DNA of 64,000 bases from a candidate division FCPU426 bacterium (GTDB lineage: Bacteria; Oederibacteriota; Muellerivitia; Muellerivitales; Muellerivitaceae): assembly GCA_963771075.1 (NCBI GenBank), contig CAVYSE010000018.1, forward strand, positions 32,001-96,000. Reading direction: 5' to 3'. Below the pieces are notes generated by a model that did no database searches, was not told the origin of the DNA, and saw only the letters and a list, made by a program, of their open reading frames with translations. Each line of letters opens with the position of its first letter. Positions within the stretch are counted from its first letter, which is position 1. The position numbers and the translations under genes are program-made. This document shows, in pieces, positions 31,597 to 63,974 of this stretch.

Positions 31597-32162
31597 GTCC
31601 GGATGATAATTGGGTCCTCAAGGATGACCATCTGCTTTCGGCCTTGATGAATAAGTTCCACTAGGCGAAAATGAAGAACAGAAAAGTGAGGATTCCTTAT
31701 TTTTTATAAGTTTGGCCCCCTGTTTAAAAGGGACTTTCGTCAAAACCACTAGTTGAGACGAGAGGTTCCATGATTTCTATCGCCCTTGGCCGCGCAAATG
31801 GCCGACGTGTAGGTGTTCCGCGCCTATTGATAAAGAGGCTTGGCGCAAAAATGAGACTGCCGAAAGTAGGGCGAGTAGTGAGCGACCATAAGGAGTCGAA
31901 TCATTGAAGTCGGCGAGGATGGAAGGTCGAAAAATGGATAATGTTGGCCTGACCCTTTTTTCTCACGGGGCGCTGAAGAAGATCGCTTCCCTCAAGCACA
32001 ATAAACGCGAGATGAATTCCAAGATCGTCTCATTGTTGCCCGACCATGCCTCTTCCACGAGGCTTCATGCCGAGAGGTATGTCTTGGGTGTATTGGCGCC
32101 AATGCCAAAGGGCTTAGTTCCAGCTTCCTGCGCAGGCGACACGAAAAGGGAAAATAGACAAA

Positions 32163-46726: not shown

Positions 46727-48102
46727 TGCCAAGCCCCCGCAATATCACAAGTGATTTCCTGACTCATCTTTTCGCGGAATATAGAAAGCAACGCGTCGAA
46801 TATTGCCTTCTGAGGAACTATAAGTCGATCCCGGATCGGATAGAGTCATCGGACGTTGACATTCTTATTTCTCCCTCATTCAAAAGGAAAAATCGGACTA
46901 TTATTTTTAAGCTGGCCAAGAAATACGGGGCCATTATCTACAACTATTATGTCGATGAACGATTCGAACAGTTCTTTTTATCCAAGCGGATTTCTCCTGG
47001 CGATTTGTTCGAACTGAAAGTGGATTTCTTTTTCGATGCTGAAATTTATGGTGTTCGTCTTATTTCCGGTAAAGAAATCTTGGATTCCAAGGTTTCCTAT
47101 AAGAATTTTTACATCGCCAATGATATTTTCCGGGTTCTTGACAAGTGGTTGTTCGTCCATCTTCTCGGTTCACCCCTGCCGCTTAAGTATCATGCTGAAT
47201 TCAAAAGAATTTTCATTCGAAACCGCAAATCCCTTGATTCTATTCTTTCAAAATTATTGGGCAATAAAACAGGAACCGTACTGTGTTCCCTAATTTGCTC
47301 TAAAGGGTTTTCTAATTTGCCGAGAATGAATAAAGGAGCTTTGTTGACCATCCTCTTTAGGGTTGCTCTATATTCACCATTTTTCCATCTCCGGCATCTT
47401 CCCCTTTTCTTTTTCTATCGCCTCAAACATTTCATCTTTCCCAAAGGCGAATTCGTCTCGGTTAGCGGTCCGGATGGAAGTGGCAAATCAACCGTTTTGG
47501 AAAGTACAAAAAAGCCACTCGAACGGTTATTTAGATCACGATCCGGCAATCATGGTCATTTTCGGCCTAATTGGTTACCGAGGATCGCAAACGTAGCAAA
47601 AACAGCAGGTGTTTTATCAAAGGTGGATGAGGCTTATGCCTCTCCCCATAGGGGAAAGCCTTCTGGTTTTCTTGGGTCGCTCTTCCGATTTTCCTACTAC
47701 CTGACAGACTATATCTTTGGCTATTTTCTTAAAATTAGGCCTGCGCTGGTAAGACGGGAGCTAGTGCTATATGACCGTTACTATTTCGACATGGTTGCCG
47801 ACCAAGGCCGTTCAAGAATTTTATTGCCGTTATGGATCCGAAAAATGGCCCTGTGGTTTATCCCTTTACCAAACACCGCTTTTTTTATACATGCCCCGTC
47901 TGCAATCATTCGAAAAAGGAAGAAAGAACTATCGTTGGAAAAAATCGAACAACTAAATGCTTACTACTTAAAAATGGCCGAAACCTCCACTTTAACAACT
48001 CTGGAGAATGATACTGCCGTGGATATTGCTGCTTCTAAATTGGTGGATACAGTTATCTATCGAAGGAGAAAGAGGCTAAAGCTTGATAGGCTTTATCAAT
48101 GA
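46726..48102 (+). CDS. Nucleotidyltransferase-like plus thymidylate-kinase-like P-loop protein
   Basis: LRNY..SDVDIL; GPDGSGKST; YDRY. Confidence 0.7.
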   Translation: MPSPRNITSDFLTHLFAEYRKQRVEYCLLRNYKSIPDRIESSDVDILISPSFKRKNRTIIFKLAKKYGAIIYNYYVDERFEQFFLSKRISPGDLFELKVDFFFDAEIYGVRLISGKEILDSKVSYKNFYIANDIFRVLDKWLFVHLLGSPLPLKYHAEFKRIFIRNRKSLDSILSKLLGNKTGTVLCSLICSKGFSNLPRMNKGALLTILFRVALYSPFFHLRHLPLFFFYRLKHFIFPKGEFVSVSGPDGSGKSTVLESTKKPLERLFRSRSGNHGHFRPNWLPRIANVAKTAGVLSKVDEAYASPHRGKPSGFLGSLFRFSYYLTDYIFGYFLKIRPALVRRELVLYDRYYFDMVADQGRSRILLPLWIRKMALWFIPLPNTAFFIHAPSAIIRKRKKELSLEKIEQLNAYYLKMAETSTLTTLENDTAVDIAASKLVDTVIYRRRKRLKLDRLYQ

Positions 48103-50548
48103 AAAGTGAAATAGTTTTTATTCATTTACTTAACGACTTCTCAGGAAGCCCCAAGATACTCAGAGAAGTCATAGATATCGTTGGTAAAAGACAGATAAAC
48201 GCGAAACTTTATATCGGTAGTTCAGGCGAAGGGGTTCTTTCCAATTGCGGCATTCCGACGACCCGTTACTGGTATCACAGATCCAGGCATAGGATACTAA
48301 CCCTTTTCAACTATTTCTTTAGTCAAATCATCCTCTTCCATAAGCTTCTTTTTGATTGTTCCATGGACAAGAATTCGGTCATCTATGTGAATACCTTGCT
48401 CCCATTCGGCGCGGCACTTTATGGACGATTGACGGGAAAGAAGATCATCTATCACATTCACGAGATATCCATCACCCCCTCAACGCTCAAATACCTGTTA
48501 ACTGGCATTGCCAGGAAAACATCCTCTTTAAATCTATATGTATCAAACGCACATATGACGGCCTTGCCTCTCCCTGGGCCCCCTACAAAACGTGTATACA
48601 ACTCGCTCGATACTAATTTCATTCAGAACGCCATCAAAAACCCTTACACAGTTCAGTACGAAGGGAAATTCAATGTATTACTTATTGCCTCATTACGTGA
48701 TTACAAAGGAATTCCCGAACTTCTTGAATTAGCTTCTGGTTTACTCGCGAATAGCGATATTCATTTTCATCTTGTGGTGAATGACGACGAGCATCATATC
48801 GATCAGTATTTTTCAGGGAAGCCGGTTCCTTCGAACTTGACGGTTCATCCCCGGACTTCGGATACAACCCCTTTTTATCGAAAAGCCAATCTGGTATTGA
48901 ACCTTTCACGAGTTGACGAGTGGGTGGAAACATTCGGGTTAACGGTTCTTGAGGCCATGACATTCGGAATACCGGTCATCGTTCCCCCGGTGGGAGGCCC
49001 AGCGGAGCTTGTCAAAGATGGAGTCCAGGGTTTCCAAGTTGATTCACGTGATTCCGTGCTATTGAAAGAAAAAGTGCTGTTACTTTACAAAGACAAGCCC
49101 TTGTGCCAGAGGATGTCCTCTGCCGGTCGATCACGATCCGCAGAATTTTCACCGGAAGTTTTCACTAAAAATATCCTCCCGGCCATTGATGAGGTTCGAG
49201 AAAACATGGCGGATAATAACCGGCTAAAATTGGCCATTCTTGGAACCCGGGGAATCCCGGCCCGCTATGGAGGTTTTGAGACCTTCGCCGAGGAATTGGC
49301 CCAACGACTCGTTCCTAAAGGAATAGAAGTTACGGTTTTCTGTGAATCCGGAAACGGTCCTCAACTCATTGAATACAAAGGGATCAAGCTCGTATATCTT
49401 CCCGCTTCCAAATTGGGCCCTTTAACGACGATCCTTTTTGATCTTCGCTGTCTCTGGCATGCTCGCAGATCCTTTGACTTGGTCTACATGCTGGGTTATG
49501 GAGCCGCTCCCTTTTGCGTCATTCCCAGGTTCTGGGGCAGTAGGGTTTGGATCAACGTGGATGGGATCGAATGGGCAAGGGCCAAATGGAATGCCTTCGC
49601 AAAGTTTTACTTCAAGCTCATGGAACTCTTTTCTTTGTGGACCGCCGATCGGATCATTGCCGATGCGGAAGGTATCAAGGCCCATCTTCGGTCCCGCCAC
49701 CACTGGTTGCCTCCCTGCACCGTGATCCCCTATGGAGCGCCCGTTATTGACGTGGCGCCGGACAAAAACCTGCTCAAGGAATGGGATCTGAACCCCCGTG
49801 ACTACTATCTGGTGGTCGCGCGCCTGGAGCCCGAAAACTACATTCTGGAAATTATCGAAGGATATAAAAGTGCCGATACTTCCACTCCTCTGGTGGTGGT
49901 CGGCGATCATCAAGCCAACACCGCCTATATGAAGAAGCTTTTGGCATTAGCCTGTCCAAATATCCGGTTCATCGGTGGGGTTTACGATAAGGTCAAACTT
50001 CAGGCCCTTCGTTTTCATTCCGAAACCTATTTCCACGGGCATTCCGCAGGTGGGACCAATCCTTCCCTCCTGGAGGCTTTGGGCTGTGGCAACCTCGTCA
50101 TCGCTCACGACAATCCGTTCAATCGCGAAGTGGCTGGTGATCTTGGTTTTTATTTCAGGTCAAAAGAGGATATTCCGGAATTACTCAAAAAAATCGGCTC
50201 CATTCCCCCCGATAAGAGGGAAAGTCTTGCCCAGCAAGCCAAGTCCCGGATGAGGGATAAGTATGATTGGGACCAAATCGCGGAAAGATACAAAGCGCTT
50301 TTGGAAGAGGACAAGGACGTAAAACAAAAAACGAACCGTCCTTTTCTGAAAATTGCTTATTTTTGTTTGGCGCTCTTGATTCTCCAGGTTAGTTATTTCC
50401 TCTCTATTATTTTTTCAACTTCGATCCTCCCCGATAAACCCGGCGCAGTTGTCGTATTTGGTGGTGGAAGCAACCGGGCGGTGGAAGCCGTCCAAGTGGC
50501 CAAGACAACCAATAGTACAAACCTGGTCGTTTCGGATAATCAGCACAC
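48099..50548 (+). CDS. GT4-GT4 fusion plus start of a YdcF/DUF218-like domain, cut by the mini-element
   Basis: ETFGLTVLEAM; second GT begins MADNN..GTRGIPARYGGFETF at 49206; TM then AVVVFGGG..R; frame runs into the element to a stop at 50708. Confidence 0.8.
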
Positions 50549-50983
50549 AACAATGGGGTCAAGTCTTCATTTTATAGTAACTATTCCAACCGCTTCTTCC
50601 TGCGCTAATGTTGTAAAATGGGCCATCGCGTATCCATTGTTCACGAGGTGGGCTAAAAGCACAAACACCTGGATGTGCCCAAATACCAGAAACAGGCAAT
50701 TAAATTGAAACCGGAAGAGGTACTGGCGAAAGTAGCTAAAATCCATGGGGAAAAGTCGGGTGAGATATTGAAGGCTGGAAAAAGGGAGTCGGAAGCACGG
50801 GACGCGGCCATTTATTTGATGAAACGGAAATCGGGGATGAGTTCAATGGAAATTGGGGAAAAGATGGGCGTGGGTGCCAGCGCGGTGGGGAATCGGATAG
50901 CGATGGTAAAGAAGCGGATGGAGGGAGAGACACGGTTCAAGGCTCGGATAGATAATATAAAATGAAGACTTGACCCCATTGTT
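50549..50983. mobile_element. 435-bp mini-element with 28-bp perfect terminal inverted repeats, copy 1
   Basis: AACAATGGGGTCAAGTCTTCATTTTATA at both ends, inverted; identical copy at 63540-63974. Confidence 0.92.
50675..50965 (+). CDS. DnaA-C-terminal-like HTH fragment
   Basis: EARDAAIYLM..SGMS..EIG..MG..SAV pattern, seen at the C-terminus of some Y1/RAYT-like transposases; stop lies inside the right TIR. Confidence 0.65.
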   Translation: MPKYQKQAIKLKPEEVLAKVAKIHGEKSGEILKAGKRESEARDAAIYLMKRKSGMSSMEIGEKMGVGASAVGNRIAMVKKRMEGETRFKARIDNIK

Positions 50984-50984
50984 C

Positions 50985-51541
50985 TTTATTTGGAGCTATG
51001 ACTTTGTGGCGGATCGAACGAGTGATACCCGGTCGTTGAGGTTTTTGACGGTGATAGACGAGTTCACGAGGGAGAACTTGGCTTTACCAGTACAGAGAAA
51101 GTTTACGGCAGATGACGTGCAGGCGACGCTGGCGGAGCTGTTCATCCAACGCGGAGTACCGGAATACATCCGCTCCGACAACGGCCCGGAGTTCACCGCG
51201 GAGAGGGTGAAGGATTGGCTGCCAAAGGTGGGAGTGAAGACCCTGTTCATTGAACCGGGAAGCCCTTGGGAGAACGGCTACAACGAGAGCTTCAACGGAA
51301 AATTCAGGGATGAACTGCTGAACGGCGAGTTGTTCGATACGGTGTGGGAAGCACGAGTGATCGCCGAAAGGTGGAGGAAGGAGTACAATACAAAACGGCC
51401 ACACAGTTCTTTGGGGTACCGGCCACCGGCCCCGGAGGCGGTCGCCATGGGGCCCAACAGCAACTTCAGGCCCATGTCGACCTCAACAAACTGAGTCTAT
51501 GGTGTGAGATTAGCGGTGGTACTAAAACCGGGGGCAGGTCA
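50985..51541 (+). pseudogene. IS3-family remnant: integrase core and right end only
   Basis: WSYDFV, IRSDNGPEF, PGSPWENGYNESFNG, RPHSSLGY; end ...GGGGCAGGTCA; 5' part missing. Confidence 0.88.
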
Positions 51542-52864
51542 ACAGACCATTGGCTTGGTACATTCAAAGCTTGTTCCTCGACTTGATGTCTCGGAACAGA
51601 AGTATCAGGCCACCTTTTCAAAGAAGTCCGTGATGGATCGATGGGATAAGGGACTTCAAGCGTTGATCGGCTGACATTTGTTGGGCGAATTATTCCTCGC
51701 CAACCCCTTTGGAAAACTTTTTCCCTCCCGGATGCGTTTTTTTCTTGAAGGCCCGGCTTCCTCCGGTTTATTTTCACATCAATTGAAAGGGTACCCGATG
51801 ACTTGTGGTCATCGGGCTAGGGGAGAACCCAAGACAGCACTTGGCGGATAACTGTTAGCTTATCGCTAACGGCTACCAGCAAACCGCTAATGGCTATATT
51901 TGGAGGTTCCCCCATGGAATCAGCACAATCACCCGTTGGTCCTTCGGACCAGATGCCCTATCCCCTCAACCAAATCGTGATGGTTCCCATCGACGACCTG
52001 TGCGACCCGCCTTGGGACCCCCGGCCCGTCGTGGATGAGGGTCCCCTCCAGCTTCTCGTGGACTATATCGCTGGGGAAGGTTACACCCCTCCCATCCTGG
52101 CTTGGGTGGGGGATGGCCGAAAACCCTGGCCGGTGCTTTCCGGCAAACGCCGCCGATTGGCAAATCAACGGTTGGGGAAAACCGAAATCGCGACGATCTT
52201 CTTGGATTGCTCCGAAGAACGGGCAAAAGACCTGACTCAATCCACCAACGAGGACGATAAGCCCTATTGGCTGGGTTCTTGTATCCAAACCGAAACCAGG
52301 TTAGCGGAATTTGGTGAAAATTATGAGATCCTTGGAAAACGGATTGGAAAGACAAAATCCTGGGTTTCGAGAGCGATTTCGTTAACGAAATTACTTAGCA
52401 ATACTTCTCGGAAGATGATTTTCGACCAATATTTAAACGCAGTTGCGAATCGCAACTCAGTTCCAAAAAAAGAAGAAAATCAGGAAACGATCAGCGTAAA
52501 AAAGGGAAGAAAGGCGCAAAAAGAGGAAAATTTAGACGACAAACAATGGTTTTTGTTGGAATCGGTCGCTCTTGAATTATTGCCCCTTTTTAGGGGCCGG
52601 CCGGTGATAGAAGCCGTCCGGCTCGCCGATCAGGTGGTACCTGTCGTTCTTTCCCAAGAATTGGACGCGAAGGGCGTCGCCAAATTGGTTGGTATGTTGA
52701 ACAAGGGCCACGAGATATCCGACTTTATGGAACTCAACCTGAAGGGACCTGCGAAATCCCAATCCGGGGGCGCCACGGCAAAGGTTCATCATGCCGAGGG
52801 GGCTGATCCCGGTAATGGATCAGCACACCCAAAGAGTGACCCTCGGCTTGAGGCCTCGGGTCAG
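51542..52864 (+). repeat. 1.32-kb direct duplication, partner at 62213-63535
   Basis: Constant offset 10671 bp; about 8 substitutions by eye. Confidence 0.95.
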
Positions 52865-55438
52865 GGGGCTGATCCTGGTAAGGGATCAGCACACCCAAAG
52901 AGTGACCCTCGGCTTGAGGCCTCGGGCCAGGGGGCTGATCCGCCAATTGAATCAGCACACCCAAAGAGTATGGCTCAGATTGAGGCTGAGCCACAGGGGG
53001 CTGGCCCTGAGGTGATTGTGGAGGAAGTCAAGAAGCCCACCTTAACCTTTTTTCAAAGGCTGAAATTATTCTGGCAGGGCATCCTCCAAGCATTTCGGAA
53101 CTTGCGGCAACCGCCTCCCGGGGAAACATCCCCCGCGAAATCGGACCCAACGAATCATGGTTCCGGTACAGGCGACCCTCCCAACGGGACCCAACCTGGA
53201 CCCACGGCCCAGGGGGCCGATTCTAGTATTGAATCGGCACTCCCCAAGAGTGGGCCGCAGCATGTGGCCGCGGCCCAGGGGGCCGATTCTAGTATTGAAT
53301 CGGCACTCCCCAAGAGTGGGCCGCAGCATGTGGCCGCGGCCCAGGGGGCCGATTCTAGTATTGAATCGGCACTCCCCAAGAGTGGGCCGCAGCATGTGGC
53401 CGCGGCCCAGGGGGCCGATTCTAGTATTGAATCGGCACTCCCCAAGAGTGGGCCGCAGCATGTGGCCACGGCCCAGGGGGCCGATTCTAGTATTGAATCG
53501 GCACTCCCCAAGAGTGGGCCGCAGCATGTGGCCACGGCCCAGGGGGTAAGACCAAGGGCTTCGCTAAAGGCTAATAGCCAACCGCCAAAGACTGTCTTTT
53601 CCGATTTTCTGGCTGACTTGGCCGAGGTCTTCCAAGGCTTTACCGCCGCCGGGGTGAAGGACTTTTTAGGCAAAATACCTGAGAACAAGTGGCAGGCCGT
53701 AGGTTATATCCTCGAAAAGGGCCTAAAAGGCGGGATCAAGTGCCTGGGGCATCTGCTTGTGGTGCTTGTGAAACATTTCTTTAAGCTGACGGGAAAGGGC
53801 ATCCACAACATCTCCAAATCCGTGGCCGCATGGGTCATGCCCATTCATTCCAGTAGCGGGTCCAGGTCCCACGGCACCCGAACCGGCCAGAATCCCCTCT
53901 TATATTTAGGCCACTGGGTGGTCTATGGGTTCATCACCTTGGCTTGCTATTCGATCGTGCTGGGGTCCATCGCGAACTTTATTCCGGTCATCGGACCCTG
54001 GATAAGGTCCGGGGAATGGACCTTCCTCCATCTTTTGCCCCAGGTGCCCCTTTGGCTGTTGGGTAAGATTTTACAACATCTTTGGATCTCCTTGGGTCTG
54101 TGGCTCATGCTTCTTTGGATGATCCACCGGGCCTTCAAGCCGGGTTTGGGGTGGCTCATCACTTTGTTTGTTCTTTTTCTCGCCGCCTGGCATTTCAAGG
54201 GTTGGGTGATGGATCAGTTACACCTTGATTTGCCGGCCTTCGAACCCAAGACGTCGGCCGCGGCCCAGGTCTCTGGCCCGAAGTCACAAACTGAGGGCGT
54301 CGGTTCTTCTTTAGAACCGACACACCCAAACCGTGGGCCTAATCTTGAAGATTCGGCCCAGGGGCATGATTTGAGAATACCCATTACCGAAAAAGGAATG
54401 GGTACCCCTCCACCTTTGTCGGCCCTTTCAGCCCCGCCGCCCACGGCGATTGTTTCCTCCCCACCCCCATCGGCGAAACCTAAACCTGCCGCAAAACTTA
54501 AGACCCCGCCTAAAAAGGTCTTAGTTGAAAGCCAAAGCGCAACACTTAAAACCGAGAACTCGGTCGCTCCCGTGGCTCTCCCCGGCGCACCCGCCACGGG
54601 GGAAGAGGCGGCGTGGGTGGCCGAGCTCATCCCCGCTTTTCACACGCCCTTCCTGGTGAAGCCTTTGGATCTTCAGCCTGACCCAACCATTTCCCCCGTC
54701 ATGGTCCAGAAAAGGCTTTCCGAAATCCAGGACCCCGAAAGGTTCCGCGTTTACGTGGGGCATGACCGCCAAACGATTAAATCCATGAACGTGGACGATG
54801 GCGGAATGGACCTATTCTTCAACGGCTCCTTCGGCGGGCTTTTGGGCGACTCATCCAGCTTTCGGTTCTTCTGGGAAGACGTGCAGGGCATCCGCCTGGC
54901 GACGGTGGAGGTTTCGGGCGACAAGCCGCAAACGCTTTGCTTTTGCGCGCTGGAAGTGAAGACCAAGAAAAAAATGGCGGCCTTCGAATGCGCGCCGGGG
55001 GACGTGGCCCATTTGGTGTCGGCCCTGGCGGCGCAGTTCAAAAGCTCCACGAAAAGGGAGGTATCGGTGGCGCCCCTGCCTTACCTGAACCAGGGTATGT
55101 GGCTGGGCGGGCAGAACCAGGTGGATGGGATGTGGAAGGAAAGCCCTGCGGGGCGGTCGCAAGAGGTGAAACTGCGCTTTACCCCGGCGGACTGGAAAAG
55201 GCCCACGACCGGCGGCGGAATCCGCCTGGGGGATTACCTTTGGAGCCTGGGCGTGAACCAGGATAACCAAACCGGGAAGGAAGAATTGCTCAGGCAGTTG
55301 GGCGGAACGGCCTCGGGACCGTCGACCCTTTTCGTGGTGGGCCCGGACGATTGGCGCAAGGCCCAGAATGCCGAGACCGGCCCCGAAAACGACCCCTTCA
55401 ACCCGCCCCGCAGGGCGGTGCGCCTGCCGGCGCCGTGA
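51890..55438 (+). CDS. ParB/Spo0J-like N-domain + HTH, 22-aa repeats, TM cluster, unknown C-terminal domain
   Basis: VPIDDL..PR..L..L...I...G...PI..SGKRRRLA; IGKTKSWVSR HTH; several hydrophobic helices in the C-terminal half. Confidence 0.75.
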   Translation: MAIFGGSPMESAQSPVGPSDQMPYPLNQIVMVPIDDLCDPPWDPRPVVDEGPLQLLVDYIAGEGYTPPILAWVGDGRKPWPVLSGKRRRLANQRLGKTEIATIFLDCSEERAKDLTQSTNEDDKPYWLGSCIQTETRLAEFGENYEILGKRIGKTKSWVSRAISLTKLLSNTSRKMIFDQYLNAVANRNSVPKKEENQETISVKKGRKAQKEENLDDKQWFLLESVALELLPLFRGRPVIEAVRLADQVVPVVLSQELDAKGVAKLVGMLNKGHEISDFMELNLKGPAKSQSGGATAKVHHAEGADPGNGSAHPKSDPRLEASGQGADPGKGSAHPKSDPRLEASGQGADPPIESAHPKSMAQIEAEPQGAGPEVIVEEVKKPTLTFFQRLKLFWQGILQAFRNLRQPPPGETSPAKSDPTNHGSGTGDPPNGTQPGPTAQGADSSIESALPKSGPQHVAAAQGADSSIESALPKSGPQHVAAAQGADSSIESALPKSGPQHVAAAQGADSSIESALPKSGPQHVATAQGADSSIESALPKSGPQHVATAQGVRPRASLKANSQPPKTVFSDFLADLAEVFQGFTAAGVKDFLGKIPENKWQAVGYILEKGLKGGIKCLGHLLVVLVKHFFKLTGKGIHNISKSVAAWVMPIHSSSGSRSHGTRTGQNPLLYLGHWVVYGFITLACYSIVLGSIANFIPVIGPWIRSGEWTFLHLLPQVPLWLLGKILQHLWISLGLWLMLLWMIHRAFKPGLGWLITLFVLFLAAWHFKGWVMDQLHLDLPAFEPKTSAAAQVSGPKSQTEGVGSSLEPTHPNRGPNLEDSAQGHDLRIPITEKGMGTPPPLSALSAPPPTAIVSSPPPSAKPKPAAKLKTPPKKVLVESQSATLKTENSVAPVALPGAPATGEEAAWVAELIPAFHTPFLVKPLDLQPDPTISPVMVQKRLSEIQDPERFRVYVGHDRQTIKSMNVDDGGMDLFFNGSFGGLLGDSSSFRFFWEDVQGIRLATVEVSGDKPQTLCFCALEVKTKKKMAAFECAPGDVAHLVSALAAQFKSSTKREVSVAPLPYLNQGMWLGGQNQVDGMWKESPAGRSQEVKLRFTPADWKRPTTGGGIRLGDYLWSLGVNQDNQTGKEELLRQLGGTASGPSTLFVVGPDDWRKAQNAETGPENDPFNPPRRAVRLPAP
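52798..53541 (+). repeat. In-frame 66-bp double-hairpin repeats (3 + 5 units; solo unit at about 54295-54360)
   Basis: Units start 52798, 52864, 52930 and 53212, 53278, 53344, 53410, 53476. Confidence 0.92.
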
Positions 55439-55604
55439 GGATTTCCGGGGCCAGGCCTCCAATTTCCATTTTTGGGGCCCCGGCCCGGAGGGGTGCTGTC
55501 AGGCAAGACGCATCGAAGCCCCCGTCGAAACCATCGGTATTGTCACAAGATGAGCGATTGGGTGTATAATCGGAAAGTAGGAATAAGTAGGAAAGTGAGA
55601 AAAT

Positions 55605-55865
55605 ATGGCATCCGTTCGAATCCGTGAAAAAGGCCAAATGACCCTGCCGAATTCCCTTCGGCGGGAAATGGGTTGGAGTTCCGAATATTTCGTCAATGCC
55701 GTCAAGGTGGGGGATTCGGTCCTGTTGATCCCCAAACCCGTCGTGGGGGACGCTCTCGCCCGCAAGGCGGCCCGGACCATGAAAACCCAGGGAATCACCC
55801 TCAGGGACCTATTGGGTGAACTGAAAAAAGCCAGGAAAGATTACTCCAAAAAAGATGCCCGCTAA
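55605..55865 (+). CDS. AbrB/MazE/SpoVT-family antitoxin
   Basis: IREKGQMTLP..LRR.MG. Confidence 0.88.
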   Translation: MASVRIREKGQMTLPNSLRREMGWSSEYFVNAVKVGDSVLLIPKPVVGDALARKAARTMKTQGITLRDLLGELKKARKDYSKKDAR

Positions 55866-56301
55866 CCGGTTTTTGAGGGTTTTCCTCGACGCCAGCGTTT
55901 GGGTGGCAGGGATCGTTTCCGAGAAGGGCGCCGCGCGGGAAATTCTCCGCTTGACGGAGGCGGGTCTTTTGGAAGTGACAGTATCAGAACAGGTGATCGT
56001 GGAGTTGGACCGTGTGATGAACGCGAAATTTCCGGAGCTTGTGCCGGAGGTACGTGGGTTTCTCAAGGCGGTCCGGCCCCGGGCGGTGGATGATCCGACG
56101 GAACAGGAAATCCGGGCCTTTCGGAGTGTCCTGGAGGCGGGGGATGCAAGCATCCTCGCGGCGGCGGAACGGGAAAAAGTGGATTACCTGGTGACCTGGG
56201 ACCGAAATGATTTTCTTAAGGGAAACGCGCAAAAACTATCTAAATGCCGGATCACCGACCCGGGTGATTTTTTAAGGGCTTTCCGGGAATACATAGGGTA
56301 A
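55855..56301 (+). CDS. PIN-domain (VapC-like) toxin
   Basis: VFLDASV, D..ILAAA, YLVTWD..DF; overlaps the antitoxin. Confidence 0.88.
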   Translation: MPANRFLRVFLDASVWVAGIVSEKGAAREILRLTEAGLLEVTVSEQVIVELDRVMNAKFPELVPEVRGFLKAVRPRAVDDPTEQEIRAFRSVLEAGDASILAAAEREKVDYLVTWDRNDFLKGNAQKLSKCRITDPGDFLRAFREYIG

Positions 56302-56530
56302 ATGACCAACCTGAAGGGATCAGATTTCAAGCGACGCGGGGGAGTATCTGAAAATAGGGAATTAGCCCAGGGCCCTTTTGGGTCACTCACTTAACACCCT
56401 TTTCACCGCCAAGAACGCCAAGAACACCTAAATGGGAATCGATGGGCGGTGATAAAAATACGCGTGGAAAAAGACCGGCGATTGGAGAAGATGGTCCATA
56501 AGTGTCAAGTGTTGTCCTGACCCCATTTTC

Positions 56531-57568
56531 GCGCGGGATGGTGTGGCGATTAAAAGGGTTTGGCGGCCGTCTTTCCACCAGCACTCCATGATTGGCCGCG
56601 TCTTGAATGCTGTTTGGATGTTGAAGTATTGGTGGCTCAGACTGCTCTTTAACCCTCAAATCAAACCCGATGTCATCCTGATCGGGACCGACCCGCTTTT
56701 TTCAATTATTTTGGTTCCGTGGCTGAAATTGCTCCGCCCCAAGGCCAAGATCGTCCATTGGTGTTTTGACCTTTACCCGGAAGCCGCCATCGCGGATGGG
56801 GTGATTGGGGATGGGAATCCCCTGGTCAAGATCGTGAAATGGATGATGAAGGGGGGATATCAAAAATGCGATTTGGTCGCCGATTTGGGAAGCTGCATGA
56901 GGGAAAGGCTGAAAGATTACGGCATTCAAAAAAGCGTGACGCTTACGCCCTGGGCATTGGAGGAGCCCCCTGAACCCTTGGGCTTCGATAAAGATGAACG
57001 GGCGCTTTTATTCGGGGATGCCCCTTTGGGGATGCTTTATTCGGGAAGTTTCGGCCGTGCCCATGAATTCTACCTGATCCTTAAACTGGCACGAAAGCTT
57101 CATTCTAAAGTGATGATCAACTACGGGGTTCGTGGAAGCCGGCTGGAAGAGTTGAAACTGGCGATTAACCCGGAAGATACCAATGTTCGAATTTCAGGTT
57201 TCGCGCCACCCGATCGATTGGCCGCGCGCCTTTGCGCTCCCGATATCCATATCGTCTCCCTTCGCCCGGAATGGGAAGGCATCGTGGTGCCCTCAAAGTT
57301 TTTTGGGGCCCTGGCCGTGGGAAGGCCGGTGTTGTTTGAGGGGCCTGAAAAATCGGCCATTGCCCAATGGATCAAGGAACACCAAGTCGGCTGGGTTTTG
57401 AGGCCCGGCAACCTGGAAGAAGTGGCGGGCGACCTGGCGCGTTTTTCGGCCGACGAGGCCGGGAAGGCGGCGATGTTCAAGCATTGCAACGAGACCTATA
57501 AGAAGTTCTTCTCCAAGAAGGCGGTTATGGACCACTGGGATAAAGAACTTCAAGCGCTGACCGGCTGA
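56531..57568 (+). pseudogene. GT4 (WcaI-like) glycosyltransferase lacking its N-terminus
   Basis: Homology to the 60985 paralogue begins just after CCTGACCCCATTTT; HWCFDLYPE, VPSKFFG. Confidence 0.8.
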
Positions 57569-57670
57569 CAATGGTCGCGCGGATGATTCTACTCAAACTA
57601 TTTTGGAAACCTTTTTTCGAGGCTTGAAAGGTCTGTTGACCGATTTAATATTAGATATTAAAATTGCATC

Positions 57671-58822
57671 ATGTATCTCCATCGGTTACTGGAAAAGACA
57701 CTGTCCCAGGTCCAAAAAGCATTCCCCGCCGTTGTCCTGACTGGCCCCCGGCAGTCGGGGAAGAGCACTCTTTTACGCCATTTCCTGGCGGCCCGGAAAC
57801 CCACGATCCTTTCGCTGGAGGACCCGCGGACCCGTTCACTCATCGCGGAAGACCCCTTGACCTACCTCCGACGGCTTCCCAAACCGGCGGTATTGGATGA
57901 GATCCAGTATTACCCGGACATCACGGTTTACGTGAAAATGATCGTGGATGCCGACCGGAAACCCGGCCAATGGTTCTTGACGGGCTCCCAGCAGTTCACC
58001 CTGATGCGCCACGTATCCGAGTCGATGGCCGGCCGGGCCGCCATCTTGACCCTTCCCCCGATCCAAATGGGGGAACGGAAAAAGACACCCAACTTGGAGG
58101 GCTTTATGGCGGGTCCCAGCTACCCGCAACCCCTGCTTGCCCCCAAAAAACATGCCGCCCTTTGGTATTCTTCCTACCTCCAGACTTACCTGGAGCGGGA
58201 CATCCGAACCCAGCTCGCCGTCTCGGATTTGCGGGATTTCGAGAAATTGATCAGGCTTCTCGCGGCCCGGACGGCCCAGGTGCTCGATTACACATCCCTG
58301 GCGGGGCCCTTGGGCTTGAGCGTGCCCACCGTTAAAAGATGGGTTTCGGCGCTCTCGGCCGGTTACATCATCCACTTGCTCCAGCCCTATTACGAGAATT
58401 TCGGAAAACGCATCATCAAGGCCCCCAAGATTTACTTTTACGATCCCGGTTTGCCGGCTTATTTGCTCCGGCTGGACCAGGGCCCCCCTGTCCAGCATGG
58501 GCCCATGGCGGGAGCCCTATTCGAAAACGCGGTGGTCTCCGAAATGCTGAAGGCCGGATGGGCGAAAGGGACACAGCCGGAGTTCTATTATTGGCACTCC
58601 CAAGGCGGGATGGAGGTGGACCTGCTCGTTCCCGGCCAGGGCGGATACGACCCGGTCGAAATCAAGCTGGCGTCCCGGTTGAAGGCGGACCATGCCCGTA
58701 ACCTGAAATACTGGCTGGAACTTTCCGGGCGAAAAAATGCGGTGGGGACTCTGGTCACCGATTCCAAAGAGGAATTTCCGGGCGCCAAAATCCGGAACAT
58801 GCATTGGGAAAATCTGTTATAG
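57671..58822 (+). CDS. AAA ATPase (AAA_14 + DUF4143 type)
   Basis: GPRQSGKST, LDEIQ, LTGS, ESMAGR, YLERD, KIYFYDPG, EVDL..EIK. Confidence 0.9.
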   Translation: MYLHRLLEKTLSQVQKAFPAVVLTGPRQSGKSTLLRHFLAARKPTILSLEDPRTRSLIAEDPLTYLRRLPKPAVLDEIQYYPDITVYVKMIVDADRKPGQWFLTGSQQFTLMRHVSESMAGRAAILTLPPIQMGERKKTPNLEGFMAGPSYPQPLLAPKKHAALWYSSYLQTYLERDIRTQLAVSDLRDFEKLIRLLAARTAQVLDYTSLAGPLGLSVPTVKRWVSALSAGYIIHLLQPYYENFGKRIIKAPKIYFYDPGLPAYLLRLDQGPPVQHGPMAGALFENAVVSEMLKAGWAKGTQPEFYYWHSQGGMEVDLLVPGQGGYDPVEIKLASRLKADHARNLKYWLELSGRKNAVGTLVTDSKEEFPGAKIRNMHWENLL

Positions 58823-58869
58823 GGGTCACCTATGAAAAAGAATGTCCAGGCAAAAGCGTAGTATCACGG

Positions 58870-59017
58870 CCCCAAGTCCAACCTGAGTCTCAAAGGACTA
58901 CAAGTCAGTCACCTATTCGCGGTTGTTTCACCGCACGATAACGTTGGACCCGGCCGCTCAATCAGGCCAAGGACCTCAACTCTTGCGGGTTGTGTCAGAC
59001 CCCGTCGGAGCTGGCCG
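58870..59017 (-). ncRNA. Predicted bridge/seek RNA of the IS110 element
   Basis: Two stem-bounded internal loops carrying matches to both strands of the target (GGGGTC, GGCCTGA) and of the donor junction (GTTATC, ATAGGTGA); transcript ends unknown. Confidence 0.7.
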
Positions 59018-60017
59018 GGCAGTCCTCAAAAGCTTCCTTCTTTCGTAACATATGAAAGATGCTTTTCAGCATAGCCCTTGCTACTGCTATTCGTCCCGCG
59101 TTATTCCCATGCTTCTTCTTCACCCTCGTGTATAAGGTCCCATACCGTCGGGTTTTGCGAATGGCATGAAGCGAGTTCTCAACCAATATCCAGCGAATCC
59201 ATTTAGAACCCTGTTTGGTGATGTGGCCGTTGTGGCTTTTTCCCCCTGATGCGTGAACACTGGGGACCAATCCACCATAAGAACATAGATGTTCCGCGTC
59301 CGGGAACCGGCGAATATCCCCAATCTCGCTCAAAATTAATAAAGCCGAAAAGGCACCCACGCCTGGCATGGTCATCATCAGCTGGGCTTCCGGGCTTTCT
59401 GCTGCCATTTTCTTGATCACCTCTTCTGATTTGGCGATCTCTTGGCCTAGTTCCCGGATTACTTCCATATATCCGTCCAGTTCCAAACGGTAGCAAGGCC
59501 GGGTACCTACCGTGGCAAGTTCGCGGAAGTTCTTTATTCCGAATCGGTTTTTAGTAACGGGTTCGATTCCCGCCTTGGTCATGACCGAAGTCATCCGGTT
59601 TTTGGCTTGTGTTCTCAATTGCACCAGGGAAGCCCGGTACCTAAGGATTTCCCGTAAGTCGCGGATCTCTCGGGGTGGCACATAGGCTCGTGGCAGCAGA
59701 TCCACCCGCAAAAGTTGAGCCAGGATTCCCGAATCAATTTTATCCGTCTTGATCTTGGCCGAGGCTATGGCTTTGACCTTTTGGGGGTGGGCCAATACCA
59801 GGTTGGGGAATCGATCCTCGATGAGTTCGTAAAAGTGATACCAATGACCTGTGGCTTCTACTACGACCTGGCTACTCACGGGTTGCTTCTTGAAATAAGC
59901 CTTTAAAGTATCCGCGTCGTTCTTCAGATCGACTTGTTCCAGCACCTTTCCTTTCTCATTCACTCTCGTGACGTAGGATGTTTTCTGGTGTAGGTCTACT
60001 CCGATATACTGTCCCAC
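58995..60017 (-). CDS. IS110-family DEDD recombinase
   Basis: GVDLH, VEATG, KTDKID, PGVG, GLVP...SGG; GGAGG RBS. Confidence 0.95.
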   Translation of the reverse strand: MGQYIGVDLHQKTSYVTRVNEKGKVLEQVDLKNDADTLKAYFKKQPVSSQVVVEATGHWYHFYELIEDRFPNLVLAHPQKVKAIASAKIKTDKIDSGILAQLLRVDLLPRAYVPPREIRDLREILRYRASLVQLRTQAKNRMTSVMTKAGIEPVTKNRFGIKNFRELATVGTRPCYRLELDGYMEVIRELGQEIAKSEEVIKKMAAESPEAQLMMTMPGVGAFSALLILSEIGDIRRFPDAEHLCSYGGLVPSVHASGGKSHNGHITKQGSKWIRWILVENSLHAIRKTRRYGTLYTRVKKKHGNNAGRIAVARAMLKSIFHMLRKKEAFEDCPASSDGV

Positions 60018-60396
60018 GGCTGCACCTCCTAAGCGTTTTGCACCACCTGCAAAGGTGAGTGCCTTTTCGACTCTGGGTTTATCCTAGAGCCTCGTCCCAC
60101 TTAAGTGGAGACGCTCTACGCTTGGAGCTCTGCAGCCTTTTTCATGTTATCAGGCTACCATTTTCCATTTTTCAAACCCGGCTCCGGCTGGGCCATGGGG
60201 AGCCCGAACCCAGGCAGAGGCTTCTATTGATTGTCGCTTGATGGGACCAAGTCCCCGACGCTCTTTGACGGGAGAACTCAAAACTTAATCTCCCTGTTAC
60301 CTAATCTAAAAGCCGAAAACATCCGGTCATGCAGGCGGGCATCATGTTGGATTGTGAATAGGGCTATAATACGGGAAACACCGAAGGAGGCGTCCC

Positions 60397-60627
60397 TTGA
60401 CCTGGCAAGATCGAATCATTATTAATCCTGAAGTCATGGTAGGAAAACCCATTGTTAAGGGTACCCGGATTACGGTTGAGTTCATTTTCGGCTTATTGGC
60501 CCAAGGGTGGAAAACCGATGAAATCCTCAAGAATTATCCTGGCATTGAACGTGAGGATATCCAGGCTTGCCTGATTTACGCGAGTGATGTTTTGCGCGCC
60601 GAAAAAGTTTATCCCCTTCCCGTATAA
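60397..60627 (+). CDS. DUF433 antitoxin
   Basis: GKPIVKGTRITV..EIL.NYP....DI.ACL.YA; AAGGAGG RBS and TATAAT upstream. Confidence 0.92.
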   Translation: MTWQDRIIINPEVMVGKPIVKGTRITVEFIFGLLAQGWKTDEILKNYPGIEREDIQACLIYASDVLRAEKVYPLPV

Positions 60628-60629
60628 AT

Positions 60630-60818
60630 ATGCGTTTTTTAGCTGATGAGAATTTTCCCGGTTCTGTTGTCGAAACCCTGAGGTTTGAAGGGCATGATGT
60701 TTTTTGGGCCAGGGTGGATTCCCCGGGGACAAAGGACAGGAGCCTCCTTTCCCGCGCGGAGGATGAGGGCCGGATCCTTTGGCCTGATGATGTCGCGCCT
60801 GATTCTTGTATGGAATAG
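60630..60818 (+). pseudogene. DUF5615 PIN-like toxin, truncated
   Basis: MRFLADEN..L...GHDV..EGRIL then an abrupt switch to WPDDVA; the expected TxDKDF motif is absent. Confidence 0.8.
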
Positions 60819-60984
60819 GCACGCCCAATCTTGCGCCTCGGCTTGAAGACCTCGGCGCGGGTCCATCATCGTGAGTTTTCAAACAGTTGGTGCGAATGAT
60901 TAAAAAAGTTCTTGTGCTAAATCATTACGGATTCGACTCCCTATGGTCGCTCACCGCAGGCTATTTCTTTGAGGTGGATTAAGA

Positions 60985-62197
60985 ATGAATAAGATCCTCA
61001 TTCTTAACCATTACTACTGGCCTGATGATGTCGCTTCTGCCCGTCATTACACCGACTTTTGCGAGGATTTCGGCGAAGAGGGGTTATTCGGTCGAGGTTT
61101 GGCCTTGCAACCGGAGCTGTCACCACTATGAGGAAAAGTACCCTTGTGGGCGGGAGATCAAAAACGGGGTCCTCATCCGCCGGGTTTGGAGGCCGCCGTT
61201 CAAGCAGCATTCCAACCTGGGCCGGATGATCGACGCCCTCTGGGTGATGGCGGTTTGGAAACTGCGGTTTTTTACCCTCTTCGGGTCCCGGCCCGACCTG
61301 TTGGTCATCGGGACCGACCCCATCTTCAGCCTTTTACTCGTTCCCCTTTTTAGGCTGTTGCACCCGAAAGTGAAGGTGGTCCATTGGTGCTTCGACCTCT
61401 ACCCCGAATACCCGGTGGCCGCGGGGATGGTGCGGGAAAACCACTGGGCGGTGCGGGCACTGGGGGCCCTGATGGAGAAGGCCTACGGCGCCTGCGACCT
61501 GGTGGCCGACCTGGGGCCCTGCATGAGGCGGCAGCTTGAAAAATATCCCGCGAAATCCCGGGCCACCCTGCCCCCCTGGGCACTGGAAGAACCCCCTTCG
61601 CCTTTGTCTTTCGACCCGGCGGAACGGAAGGAACTTTTCGGTGACTCGCGGCTGGGCCTGCTCTATTCGGGAAATTTCGGTCTGCCCCATGCCTTTGAGC
61701 TGAGTTTGGCTCTGGCCCGCCGGTTGAAAAGCCAATCCACTACATTGACCTACAGCGCCCATGGGAGCCGGATAGAAGAACTCAAGGGGGCTTTGACGCC
61801 CAAGGACACGAATATCCGTTTTGTTTCCTTTGTCCCGCCGGATCGTTTGGCTGCCCGTCTGAGCGCCCCGGATGTCCATGTGGTCAGCCTGCGCCCCGAG
61901 TGGGCGGGGCTGGTGGTGCCATCCAAATTTTTTGGGGTTTTGGCGGTGGGCCGCCCGGTATTATTCGAGGGGGATGGGGGTTCTTCCATCGCCCAATGGA
62001 TCAAGGAGCACCAAGTCGGTTGGATCCTGCGGCCGGACAACCTGGAGGAAGTGGCGGGGGACTTGGTGAGATTTTCGGTGGATGACGCCAGGAAAGCGGC
62101 GATGTTCAAGCATTGCAACTCCGTTTACCAAGCCTATTTTTCAAAGAAGTCCGTGATGGATCGATGGGATAAAGAATTGAAAAATATAATCGGGTGA
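60985..62197 (+). pseudogene. GT4 (WcaI-like) glycosyltransferase with a +1 frameshift near 61071
   Basis: GAGGTG RBS and ATG 60985 give MNKILILNHYYWPDDVASARHYTDFCED; homology continues AKRGYSVEV in the next frame. Confidence 0.8.
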
Positions 62198-62560
62198 TTG
62201 GGACCCTCCATCACAGACCATTGGCTTGGTACATTCAAAGCTTGTTCCTCGACTTGATGTCTCGGAACAGAAGTATCAGGCCACCTTTTCAAAGAAGTCC
62301 GTGATGGATCGATGGGATAAGGGACTTCAAGCGTTGATCGGCTGACATTTGTTGGGCGAATTATTCCTCGCCAACCCCTTTGGAAAACTTTTTCCCTCCC
62401 GGATGCGTTTTTTTCTTGAAGGCCCGGCTTCCTCCGGTTTATTTTCACATCAATTGAAAGGGTACCCGATGACTTGTGGTCATCGGGCTAGGGGAGAACC
62501 CAAGACAGCACTTGGCGGATAACTGTTAGCTTTTCGCTAACGGCTACCAGCAAACCGCTA

Positions 62561-63535
62561 ATGGCTATATTTGGAGGTTCCCCCATGGAATCAGCACAAT
62601 CACCCGTTGGTCCTTCGGACCAAATGCCCTATCCCCTCAACCAAATCGTGATGGTTCCCATCGACGACCTGTGCGACCCGCCTTGGGACCCCCGGCCCGT
62701 CGTGGATGAGGGTCCCCTCCAGCTTCTCGTGGACTATATCGCTGGGGAAGGTTACACCCCTCCCATCCTGGCTTGGGTGGGGAATGGCCGAAAACCCTGG
62801 CCGGTGCTTTCCGGCAAACGCCGCCGATTGGCAAATCAGCGGTTGGGGAAAACCGAAATCGCGACGATCTTCTTGGATTGCTCCGAAGAACGGGCAAAAG
62901 ACCTCACTCAATCCACCAACGAGGACGATAAGCCCTACTGGCTGGGTTCTTGTATCCAAACCGAAACCAGGTTAGCGGAATTTGGTGAAAACTATGAGAT
63001 CCTTGGAAAACGGATTGGAAAGACAAAATTCTGGGTTTCGAGAGCGATTTCGTTAACGAAATTACTTAGCAATACTTCTCGGAAGATGATTTTCGACCAA
63101 TATTTAAACGCAGTTGCGAATCGCAACTCAGTTCCAAAAAAAGAAGAAAATCAGGAAACGATCAGCGTAAAAAAGGGAAGAAAGGCGCAAAAAGAGGAAA
63201 ATTTAGACGACAAACAATGGTTTTTGTTGGAATCGGTCGCTCTTGAATTATTGCCCCTTTTTAGGGGCCGGCCGGTGATAGAAGCCGTCCGGCTCGCCGA
63301 TCAGGTGGTACCTGTCGTTCTTTCCCAAGAATTGGACGCGAAGGGCGTCGCCAAATTGGTTGGTATGTTGAACAAGGGCCACGAGATATCCGACTTTATG
63401 GAACTCAACCTGAAGGGACCTGCGAAATCCCAATCCGGGGGCGCCACGGCAAAGGTTCATCATGCCGAGGGGGCTGATCCCGGTAATGGATCAGCACACC
63501 CAAAGAGTGACCCTCGGCTTGAGGCCTCGGGTCAG
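62561..63535 (+). pseudogene. Truncated duplicate of the ParB-like gene
   Basis: Near-identical to 51890-52864; cut by mini-element copy 2. Confidence 0.88.
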
Positions 63536-63539
63536 CAGC

Positions 63540-63974
63540 AACAATGGGGTCAAGTCTTCATTTTATAGTAACTATTCCAACCGCTTCTTCCTGCGCTAAT
63601 GTTGTAAAATGGGCCATCGCGTATCCATTGTTCACGAGGTGGGCTAAAAGCACAAACACCTGGATGTGCCCAAATACCAGAAACAGGCAATTAAATTGAA
63701 ACCGGAAGAGGTACTGGCGAAAGTAGCTAAAATCCATGGGGAAAAGTCGGGTGAGATATTGAAGGCTGGAAAAAGGGAGTCGGAAGCACGGGACGCGGCC
63801 ATTTATTTGATGAAACGGAAATCGGGGATGAGTTCAATGGAAATTGGGGAAAAGATGGGCGTGGGTGCCAGCGCGGTGGGGAATCGGATAGCGATGGTAA
63901 AGAAGCGGATGGAGGGAGAGACACGGTTCAAGGCTCGGATAGATAATATAAAATGAAGACTTGACCCCATTGTT
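63540..63974. mobile_element. 435-bp mini-element, copy 2 (HTH ORF at 63666-63956)
   Basis: Identical to 50549-50983, offset 12991. Confidence 0.92.

Follow-up and report, generated by a model that had tools for sequence, protein, structure and literature searches.

Terminal inverted repeats of TIRtrons mark breakpoints in a polysaccharide region of a candidate division FCPU426 bacterium

We analyzed a window of 64,000 nt from the genome of a candidate division FCPU426 bacterium (Oederibacteriota; Muellerivitia; Muellerivitales; Muellerivitaceae), concentrating on positions 50549-63974, where a motif headed by GGGGTCA, or TGACCCC in the inverted orientation, recurs at the borders of damaged genes. 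This repeated motif is the terminal inverted repeat (TIR), 26-28 nt long, of TIRtrons, whose protein combines a Y1/HUH nuclease with a DnaA-type helix-turn-helix (HTH) domain. The best explanation of the window is that it contains the debris of many events at element ends, produced by several TIRtron subfamilies, and that the family is real and unusually active. As to how these events arise, we lean toward a mechanism in which the enzyme would nick one strand 3-13 nt outside a single TIR and rejoin it to an arbitrary break in the same strand, yielding deletions and direct duplications. The TIRtron element class is already known; the value of the present family lies in the signature of its junctions. 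An earlier reading of the same sequence (hereafter, the original prediction) had proposed that the motif bounds the cassettes of a gene-shuffling system.

The window spans positions 32001-96000 of contig C18 (CAVYSE010000018.1, assembly GCA_963771075.1) of the genome studied, which we call G000. Coordinates are those of the window, unless a contig prefix such as G000:C18 is given. Other G-numbers denote other genomes used in comparisons, of which G001 belongs to the same genus.

The original prediction held that the ends are acted on in trans, plausibly by a Y1/HUH transposase, in view of the DnaA-C-like HTH relic, and G000 does encode such an enzyme, with an HTH of this kind. The genome has 20 matches to Y1_Tnp, comprising three short, IS200-type matches and 17 long ones. 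Both ends are present at 14 of the long matches, giving copies of about 1 kb from end to end (1000-1022 bp), all outside the window. The reading frame is intact in 12 of these 14 and contains a stop in the other two, and the right TIR is split by an IS110 element in two. The two-ended copies form six or seven sequence groups; in three groups, copies on different contigs are 98.5-99.8% identical, and whole TIRtrons therefore move. The protein of these autonomous copies matches PF01797 (Y1_Tnp) above the cut-off and PF08299 (Bac_DnaA_C) with 37 bits, where the cut-off is 31.5. The residues of its HxH and Y...N motifs (H60, H62, Y119 and N123) are invariant in all nine aligned homologs. A structure model built from nine sequences (pLDDT 65), and used for domain identity only, matches TnpA-REP (4ER8), the folds of IS608 and ISDra2, and domain IV of DnaA. 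Related genes occur in 22 of 30 relatives, and among 38 full-length loci in other genomes, 28 have TIRs. A plasmid search produced one match, at 39%, without an empty-site pair.

TIRtrons, or TIRYTs, were named by Di Nocera, De Gregorio and Rocco in 2013, whose report gives a GGGGWSAS head and dispersed TIR families (PMC3733652). Quentin et al. 2018 treat the same elements as TnpA-Y1 subclass 2.1, more narrowly 2.1.2, a large Y1 subclass found in 14.9% of strains (PMC6006769). Judging from domain layout and TIR, the G000 elements are members of this class, with which they share the Y1/HUH core with a Bac_DnaA_C-like HTH, TIRs headed by GGGGWSAS and dispersed families of solo TIRs. Two variants of the TIR head, GGGGTCAA and GGGGCCAG, are one position off this consensus. 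The accessible portions of the two papers contain no mechanism, junction analysis or evidence of transposition as a unit. Beyond the published elements, G000 offers several active multi-copy subfamilies, the GGGGCCAG and GGGGTCAA heads, variable linkers, stutters and one-ended rearrangements. A literature search, with subscription journals outside its reach, found only these two relevant papers and no mechanistic study of TIRtrons or TIRYTs. Action of TIRtron ends singly and on one strand was likewise not found in print, although a TIR figure of PMC3733652 could hold part of it.

A genome-wide motif scan, which had been suggested as a check, bears out the long form of the motif but not the 7-mer alone. 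When scored with a 26-nt matrix derived from element ends, 97 sites in G000 reach at least 18 bits, versus one in the reversed genome. By itself, the 7-mer GGGGTCA shows no enrichment (1181 occurrences versus 1115 expected under a Markov model), and we rejected it as a marker. Partial heads with A-rich flanks were also rejected as an additional signal, being no commoner than control words. The refined catalogue, which includes 10 sites split by IS110 and added by hand, has 110 sites in 42 clusters, where 86 clusters would be expected for random placement; 49 of the 110 have no transposase relic inside. Solo TIR-like sites of a "CCATTTT" type lie at 31956 (minus strand) and G000:C18:104155 (plus strand), the edges of the same polysaccharide region.

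Within the window, all of the motif sequences named in the original prediction were found where it had placed them, and the motif does form the TIRs of two mini-elements. Mini-TIRtron 1 (50549-50983, plus strand, including AACAAT flanks; GGGG to CCCC at 50555-50977) has TIRs that start at 50555 (plus) and 50977 (minus), and mini-TIRtron 2 (63540-63974, plus strand; GGGG to CCCC at 63546-63968) has TIRs that start at 63546 (plus) and 63968 (minus). Each is 423 bp long with 28-nt TIRs, and the two are 99.6% identical over 445 bp. They are non-autonomous deletion derivatives whose ends are closest to those of a C3-type TIRtron, and mini-TIRtron 1 contains a coding relic of the DnaA-C HTH (50675-50965) that scores below the Bac_DnaA_C cut-off. 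Just past the window, mini-TIRtron 2 is followed by a third copy of the mini-element and a one-ended partial copy.

Four genes that abut such ends had been described as truncated, and comparison with intact homologs upholds this for each; the lost parts do not lie beside the ends. A YdcF/DUF218-like domain (50286-50548, plus strand), in frame with an upstream glycosyltransferase open reading frame (ORF), is cut by the left end of mini-TIRtron 1 at about residue 86, as judged from a 204-aa DUF218 homolog in G014. At the right end of the same mini-element, an IS3-family element (50989-51541, plus strand) has lost its 5' half, which is absent from the whole assembly, while a full copy exists in G002. 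A glycosyltransferase gene at 56531-57568 (plus strand) starts at a TIR linker and lacks about 60 N-terminal codons relative to its G001 ortholog; the missing codons have no close match elsewhere in the assembly. The fourth gene is the second copy of a ParB-like gene. It lies in a block at 62213-63535 (plus strand) that duplicates, with 99.4% identity, a 1323-bp block at 51542-52864 (plus strand) consisting of a glycosyltransferase 3' relic, a leader and the 5' part of the first ParB-like copy. Compared with that first copy, the second breaks off behind a GGGTCAG look-alike, where the 10- to 11-nt linker of mini-TIRtron 2 begins.

Three further ends lie between the mini-elements. The first ParB-like copy is a full gene (51890-55438, plus strand) with a ParB-N domain, 22-aa repeats and a membrane part, and belongs to a multi-copy family. 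As had been predicted, the motif recurs just after its stop, in the form of a solo 27-nt TIR (55447-55473, plus strand) that begins 8 nt away and whose interior is not transposase. A second solo TIR is split by an IS110 element into its GGGG head (58822-58825, plus strand) and its TCA core and inner part (60150-60172, plus strand). The rebuilt target overlaps the stop of an AAA_14/DUF4143 ATPase gene (57671-58822, plus strand), the last base of the TAG being the first G of the TIR. These two solo TIRs belong to a subfamily of which complete elements were seen in G002 and G004 but none in G000. The inverted motif at 56516-56529 is also present, and closes at 56524, but the original prediction needs correction here: this motif belongs to the relic of a right end, 97 bp long (56433-56530, minus strand; linker 56525-56530), from a different, C21/C5-type TIRtron subfamily. 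The relic is 100% identical to full C21 copies. The claim that such ends remodel the locus fits what we see, as the ends mark the breakpoints.

Junctions were also compared throughout the genome. Thirty-one G000 ends lie in repeated DNA whose sequence also occurs uninterrupted elsewhere, which permits a comparison with the empty allele. None of the 31 is a clean insertion: at 23, no continuation of the interrupted sequence lies within 8 kb; at seven, it continues solely because the junction is a direct duplication of nearby DNA, with its second border 155-2225 nt inside; and one is an artefact of another insertion sequence (IS). Junctions lie outside the GGGG, from which they are separated by a linker of 5-13 nt in comparisons with empty alleles of 97.5% identity or more, except for one 29-nt stutter. 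This linker is A-rich and absent from the target, and 4-11 nt are in common with the flank of the neighbouring copy in 10 of 12 local pairs. Across 30 junctions we found no target consensus, with no base exceeding 16 of 30 at any of eight junction positions. Target duplications are absent, as had been claimed: flanking direct repeats of at least 10 bp occur at none of 68 elements, and repeats of 8 bp at two of 68 (versus three of 587 controls).

Short duplications at the ends are common. An exact tandem stutter, consisting of the linker and the start of the TIR, spans the outer edge of 24 among 212 distinct ends, five in G000 and 19 in other genomes. By comparison, stutters were found at three of 3000 random positions, at two of 608 other GGGGTCA sites and at 1-5 of 212 shifted positions. 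The linker part of the stutters measures 3-13 nt, and the part inside the TIR 1-39 nt, with a peak at exactly 7 nt (eight of 24); for one of the 24 (L091), the element boundary was placed inside such an array. Because stutters occur in many separately made assemblies, they are unlikely to be assembler artefacts. Longer one-ended duplications, at either end, occur in G018, G014 and G001. Extra local copies of ends are direct in 29 cases and inverted in none (eight loci), and the G000 end pairs are direct in 21 cases and inverted in one, which has IS110 in both ends; these counts are not independent, since a single locus, counted from each element, contributes 12 of the 29.

Two observations in other genomes concern the same outer edges. 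Multi-unit arrays of linker and partial TIR lie outside TIRtron ends at L119, L116, L131, L158 and L091, from Verrucomicrobia and Nitrospiraceae records. In G012, the two ends of one TIRtron (L181:5515 and 6529) share a 14-nt outer flank, inverted between them, and the TIR variant of the right end is also found on the left, such that one end seems to have been copied onto the other.

These junctions can be compared with what an ordinary transposon would leave. TIRtrons might be two-ended elements that insert as a unit without target duplication, in which case the deletions and duplications would be secondary results of abortive events, replication slippage at protein-bound repeats or homologous recombination between copies. 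The near-identical full copies on different contigs do speak for movement as a unit. Also, among 45 toxin-antitoxin (TA) loci that we collected in G000 from six Pfam families, eight lie within 2.5 kb of other IS elements (p 0.004), and by this explanation the region would therefore be a general hotspot. However, not one of the 31 junctions is a clean insertion, the duplications, which begin exactly at the variable linker and involve little microhomology, occur about 30-100 times more often at TIR edges than at control sites, and inversions are nearly absent. We therefore consider it improbable that unit insertion followed by secondary damage produced the junctions.

HUH/Y1 enzymes cut single strands by way of a phosphotyrosine and then rejoin them, according to section 3 of PMC6006769. 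In the mechanism that we favor for TIRtrons, the HTH domain would bind the double-stranded TIR, and the HUH/tyrosine domain would nick at a loosely measured distance outside the GGGG and remain bound to the 5' end. Because the nuclease would nick outside the GGGG and hold this end, a short, variable, A-rich linker would travel with it. If the free 3'-OH were first extended into the element and then religated, the product would be a tandem duplication of the linker, the TIR and between 1 and about 2000 nt. If the joined 3'-OH lay further out, the flank would be deleted and a truncated gene would abut the end. Joining within the same strand only would make no inversions, and the same transfer could carry whole elements, as well as one-ended blocks of TIR and passenger, to distant sites. 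Our preference for a nick with optional polymerase extension and religation rests on two features of the products: their second border is arbitrary, and many of them are short. An analogy, for which we did not find a direct paper, is illegitimate joining at rolling-circle nick sites.

Several points weigh against this proposal. The nicked strand, its polarity and the side that keeps the tyrosine are our assignments, and sequence alone cannot tell between the choices. The A-rich linker is unaccounted for by the model, and several junctions carry 1-5 unexplained extra bases. In its simplest form, the model predicts long variable target duplications, which were rejected by the absence of repeats of 10 bp or more from all 68 elements. 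Clean two-ended insertions in unique DNA are outside the scope of the empty-allele comparison, as are full elements there, because the relatives are too distant to provide empty sites (two regions, five genomes). The orientation counts are subject to the lack of independence already described. Finally, the peak of stutters at 7 nt may mean that, instead of joining without a target, the enzyme makes another, specific cut after GGGGTCA.

This peak is what would be expected from a two-cut exchange of single-stranded DNA, as in IS200/IS605 and TnpA-REP. One cut would be made outside the TIR and another elsewhere, with a preference for the position directly behind GGGGTCA or a look-alike but otherwise loosely placed, and the swapped strands would give circles or unequal sister exchanges, leading to the same products as nicking and religation but without polymerase extension. 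The fold and motifs of the enzyme are typical of those that cut and rejoin single-stranded DNA, and the break in the second ParB-like copy follows its look-alike. Yet TCA or another common target end is missing at most of the long-range junctions, and stutters with extents from 1 to 39 nt occur as well. We think it rather unlikely that two cuts are involved, and retain single-ended nicking and rejoining as the preferred explanation.

The cassette system of the original prediction can be framed as an evolved one, in which the motif would resemble an att site and recombination between two motifs would shuffle TA genes and other accessory genes. This was not borne out, and we now judge it very improbable. 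Cassette geometry is lacking, the junctions look single-ended with an arbitrary second breakpoint, and precise presence or absence of cassettes was not seen in the relatives compared. An enrichment of TA genes at ends, for which a test had been suggested, does hold in G000: 14 of the 45 TA loci are within 1 kb of a TIR, where shifted positions give a mean of 1.8 and a maximum of seven, and without the window locus the count is 11 of 40. By comparison, two of the 45 are within 1.5 kb of other IS elements, rising to the eight mentioned above at 2.5 kb. However, the enrichment does not extend to other genomes, where TA genes lie on two of 76 near flanks (plus two lone HTH_3 genes) and on one of 76 far flanks, in a set of 54 full-TIRtron loci for which ORF calling was crude and limited to small ORFs. 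We therefore rejected a general link between TIRtrons and TA genes. Even in G000, 31 of the 45 loci have no TIR within 1 kb, and orientation is mixed among the other 14, with eight inside and six outside the ends. Only one of these 14, the AbrB-PIN pair of the window, lies between two inward-facing ends, which belong to different subfamilies; on these grounds we rejected a TA cassette geometry. The corresponding locus in G001 holds other TA pairs with no TIR beside them, and an excision joint was not found in contigs of four sequencing runs, in which cover was low and patchy.

Passenger DNA is nevertheless present at some ends, as a cassette system would have it. Besides the 49 catalogued sites that lack a transposase relic, there are TIR-headed passenger blocks of 605 bp (97.9% identity), 1369 bp (99.1%) and 1113 bp (92.3%), each at two sites, but their second border is arbitrary. 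Eight of 12 ParB-like copies in G000 have a TIR on the same strand 247-624 nt upstream. In relatives, this is true of two of 56 copies (out of about 110 listed, and scored with a matrix trained on G000), so the association is specific to G000, and ParB-like genes were rejected as family-wide cargo led by TIRs. The idea that the ParB-like 3' end is an attI-like site was rejected because 12 other copies of this end have no TIR after them. It is probable that the ends occasionally carry passengers, but not in cassettes whose arrangement has evolved. The co-occurrence of TA genes with solo ends likely reflects their setting, a tolerant variable region in which addictive modules resist deletion. 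Such resistance is a published idea, in a paper that also notes systems without this effect (PMC2654758).

The ParB-like genes deserve separate mention. Proteins with a ParB-N domain, repeats and a membrane part constitute a divergent multi-copy family among G000 and 30 family genomes; several relatives have as many as 10-16 matches each, including the ordinary ParB. Its conserved 3' end is repeated 12 more times in G000, and the family is possibly a mobile element of its own.

Integron gene cassettes are characterized by a uniform orientation of sites, one site per gene and precise excision. The G000 region resembles an integron in being array-like, with repeated sites of variable sequence beside TA genes. 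However, the sites are transposon ends and have neither a uniform orientation, nor a layout of one site per gene, nor precise excision. We therefore rejected an integron cassette array, in which a uniformly oriented site would follow each cassette and cassettes would be gained or lost precisely. No IntI integrase was found among the window genes scanned; a genome-wide search was not made.

The IS91 enzyme is a two-tyrosine enzyme. IS91 and ISCR elements, as described in PMC13181058, resemble TIRtrons in having an HUH enzyme, no target duplication and single-end events that move or rearrange adjacent DNA. In the same source, the two ends of IS91, oriIS and terIS, differ from each other, its target is a tetranucleotide, and one-ended events are failed terminations. 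By contrast, TIRtron ends are symmetric, both give one-ended duplications, no fixed target was seen, and the cut position varies. Symmetric TIRs, together with the absence of any base above 16 of 30 at the junctions, led us to reject membership in IS91/ISCR. IS200/IS605 TnpA and TnpA-REP/RAYT proteins (PDB 4ER8, 2VJV) have the same catalytic fold and HUH, Y and N motifs. They are described in PMC6006769 and PMC5581495 as binding subterminal hairpins and cutting at a base fixed by a guide tetranucleotide, with RAYTs mostly single-copy. The TIRtron enzyme differs in its added HTH of the type that binds double-stranded DNA, in its variable junctions and in copying itself. A fixed cleavage base and a tetra- or pentanucleotide target, as in IS200/IS605, were not seen, the linker varying from 3 to 13 nt.

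The element that splits the second solo TIR is itself associated with TIRtrons. It is a 1327-bp IS110 element (58826-60152, minus strand) that interrupts the TIR as GGGG|TCA|GGCTACC and encodes a DEDD recombinase (58995-60017; PF01548 and PF02371). Sub-terminal inverted repeats of 9 nt (58832-58840 and 60137-60145), located 7 and 6 nt from the ends, and a non-coding region of 169 nt downstream of the gene, versus 135 nt upstream, identify it as IS1111-type. All nine right ends of this element in G000 continue into a TIR, and seven of eight true left ends follow GGGG; two further left-end matches, an internal duplicate and a partial match, were excluded. The downstream region (58826-58994, minus strand) is predicted to contain a seek or bridge RNA, with a 9-nt match to the left target arm (58962-58970), a 5-nt match to the right arm (58947-58951) and two donor matches (58937-58942 and 58909-58916). 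The left guide matches the rebuilt targets at 9, 9, 7, 7, 6, 6 and 6 of nine positions, and a 9-mer match would arise by chance within 170 nt with a probability of 0.0014. Folded as a single sequence, the guide region is unremarkable (z -0.38). Homologs with 51% (G023, four copies) and 34% (G059, three copies) identity are again inserted at the TGA core of GGGGTCA-type repeats. In both, the guide is altered together with the local TIR, and the donor guides track the left end. Closer homologs from metagenomes agree less tightly, and some of their flanks are cut short.

The insertion site of this IS1111-type element is the TCA in the head of the TIR, to which a downstream RNA most likely guides it. 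Throughout G000 it occupies nine of 42 TIRs whose heads read TCAGG, and none of 68 with other heads. The unoccupied heads include all mini-element ends (TCAAG) and the GGGGCCAGG subfamilies, and possibly represent escape from the guide. If guidance and escape are real, insertion should take place into GGGGTCAGG heads, but not into GGGGCCAGG or GGGGTCAAG heads. IS4321 and IS5075 are IS1111-group elements that target the repeats of Tn21. ISPa11 and ISKpn4, which target REP and attC sites, respectively, are IS1111-group elements that likewise exploit sites of other elements, according to PMC11187229 and PMC11208160. The G000 element has in common with them the DEDD recombinase, sub-terminal repeats, a long downstream non-coding region that matches both target strands with the top-strand match first, and the lack of added bases. 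It differs in that its target is the TIRtron head, and in that this habit is kept by homologs with 34-94% identity while the guide tracks the local TIR variant. Target tables of these two papers could already hold some of this targeting. The clade adds natural guide-target pairs across protein identities of 34-100%.

Taking these elements together, a broader hypothesis can be entertained, tentatively and with more doubt than the junction mechanism itself. TIRYTs might represent a third mode of HUH transposition, in which a DnaA-like domain reads a double-stranded end, a loosely placed nick is made outside it, and the 5' end is joined to any 3'-OH without a target sequence. One 27-bp site would then suffice in trans to duplicate, delete or carry its neighbors, solo TIRs would serve as a local system for shuffling and gene capture, a dedicated clade of RNA-guided IS1111 elements would parasitize the ends, and the GGGGCCAG and GGGGTCAA heads would escape these parasites.

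In their accessible portions, the 2013 and 2018 naming papers leave the activity of TIRYTs untried, and the junction signature makes the mechanism directly testable. The preferred mechanism predicts a nick 3-13 nt outside the GGGG, sufficiency of a single end, products in the same strand only and no target duplication. For such experiments, G000 supplies intact, recently active enzymes, such as those encoded at G000:C3:235052-236051 and G000:C21:73012-74027, and natural mini-elements. If the mechanism is correct, a 27-bp site and one protein would be enough to delete, duplicate or move adjacent genes, which would bear on the turnover of variable polysaccharide and defense loci in uncultured bacteria.

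Other features of the window lie among these ends. The AbrB-PIN pair consists of a weak match to an AbrB/MazE-like antitoxin and a PIN toxin (55605-56301, plus strand), and a different short dispersed repeat (56390-56432) adjoins the inner edge of the right-end relic. A DUF433 antitoxin and a truncated DUF5615 toxin (60397-60818, plus strand) follow the split TIR. The truncation, at about 60779, is not at a TIR, but is caused by a non-TIR repeat of about 150 bp (60779-60928; also G000:C18:98588-98887), which is joined three times at the same "WPDDV" codons of glycosyltransferase starts. Next is a second glycosyltransferase gene (61025-62197, plus strand) with a disrupted 5' region. Upstream, a single open frame of 869 aa (48099-50708) fuses two glycosyltransferase units and the truncated DUF218 domain, whereas DUF218 genes are separate in G014.

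The mobile elements of G000 are very active in general, with tblastn loci for 15 IS4-like, 9-10 IS30-like, six IS256-like and three IS200 elements, and with 10 identical copies of a group II intron reverse transcriptase. An inverted duplication at G000:C17:145825-159075 includes 209-aa genes, pieces of inositol-phosphate synthase and two 1440-aa genes. It has TIR-like sites at the mirror positions 150327 and 154573, and probably reflects either a fold-back in the assembly or an inverted repeat of larger size.

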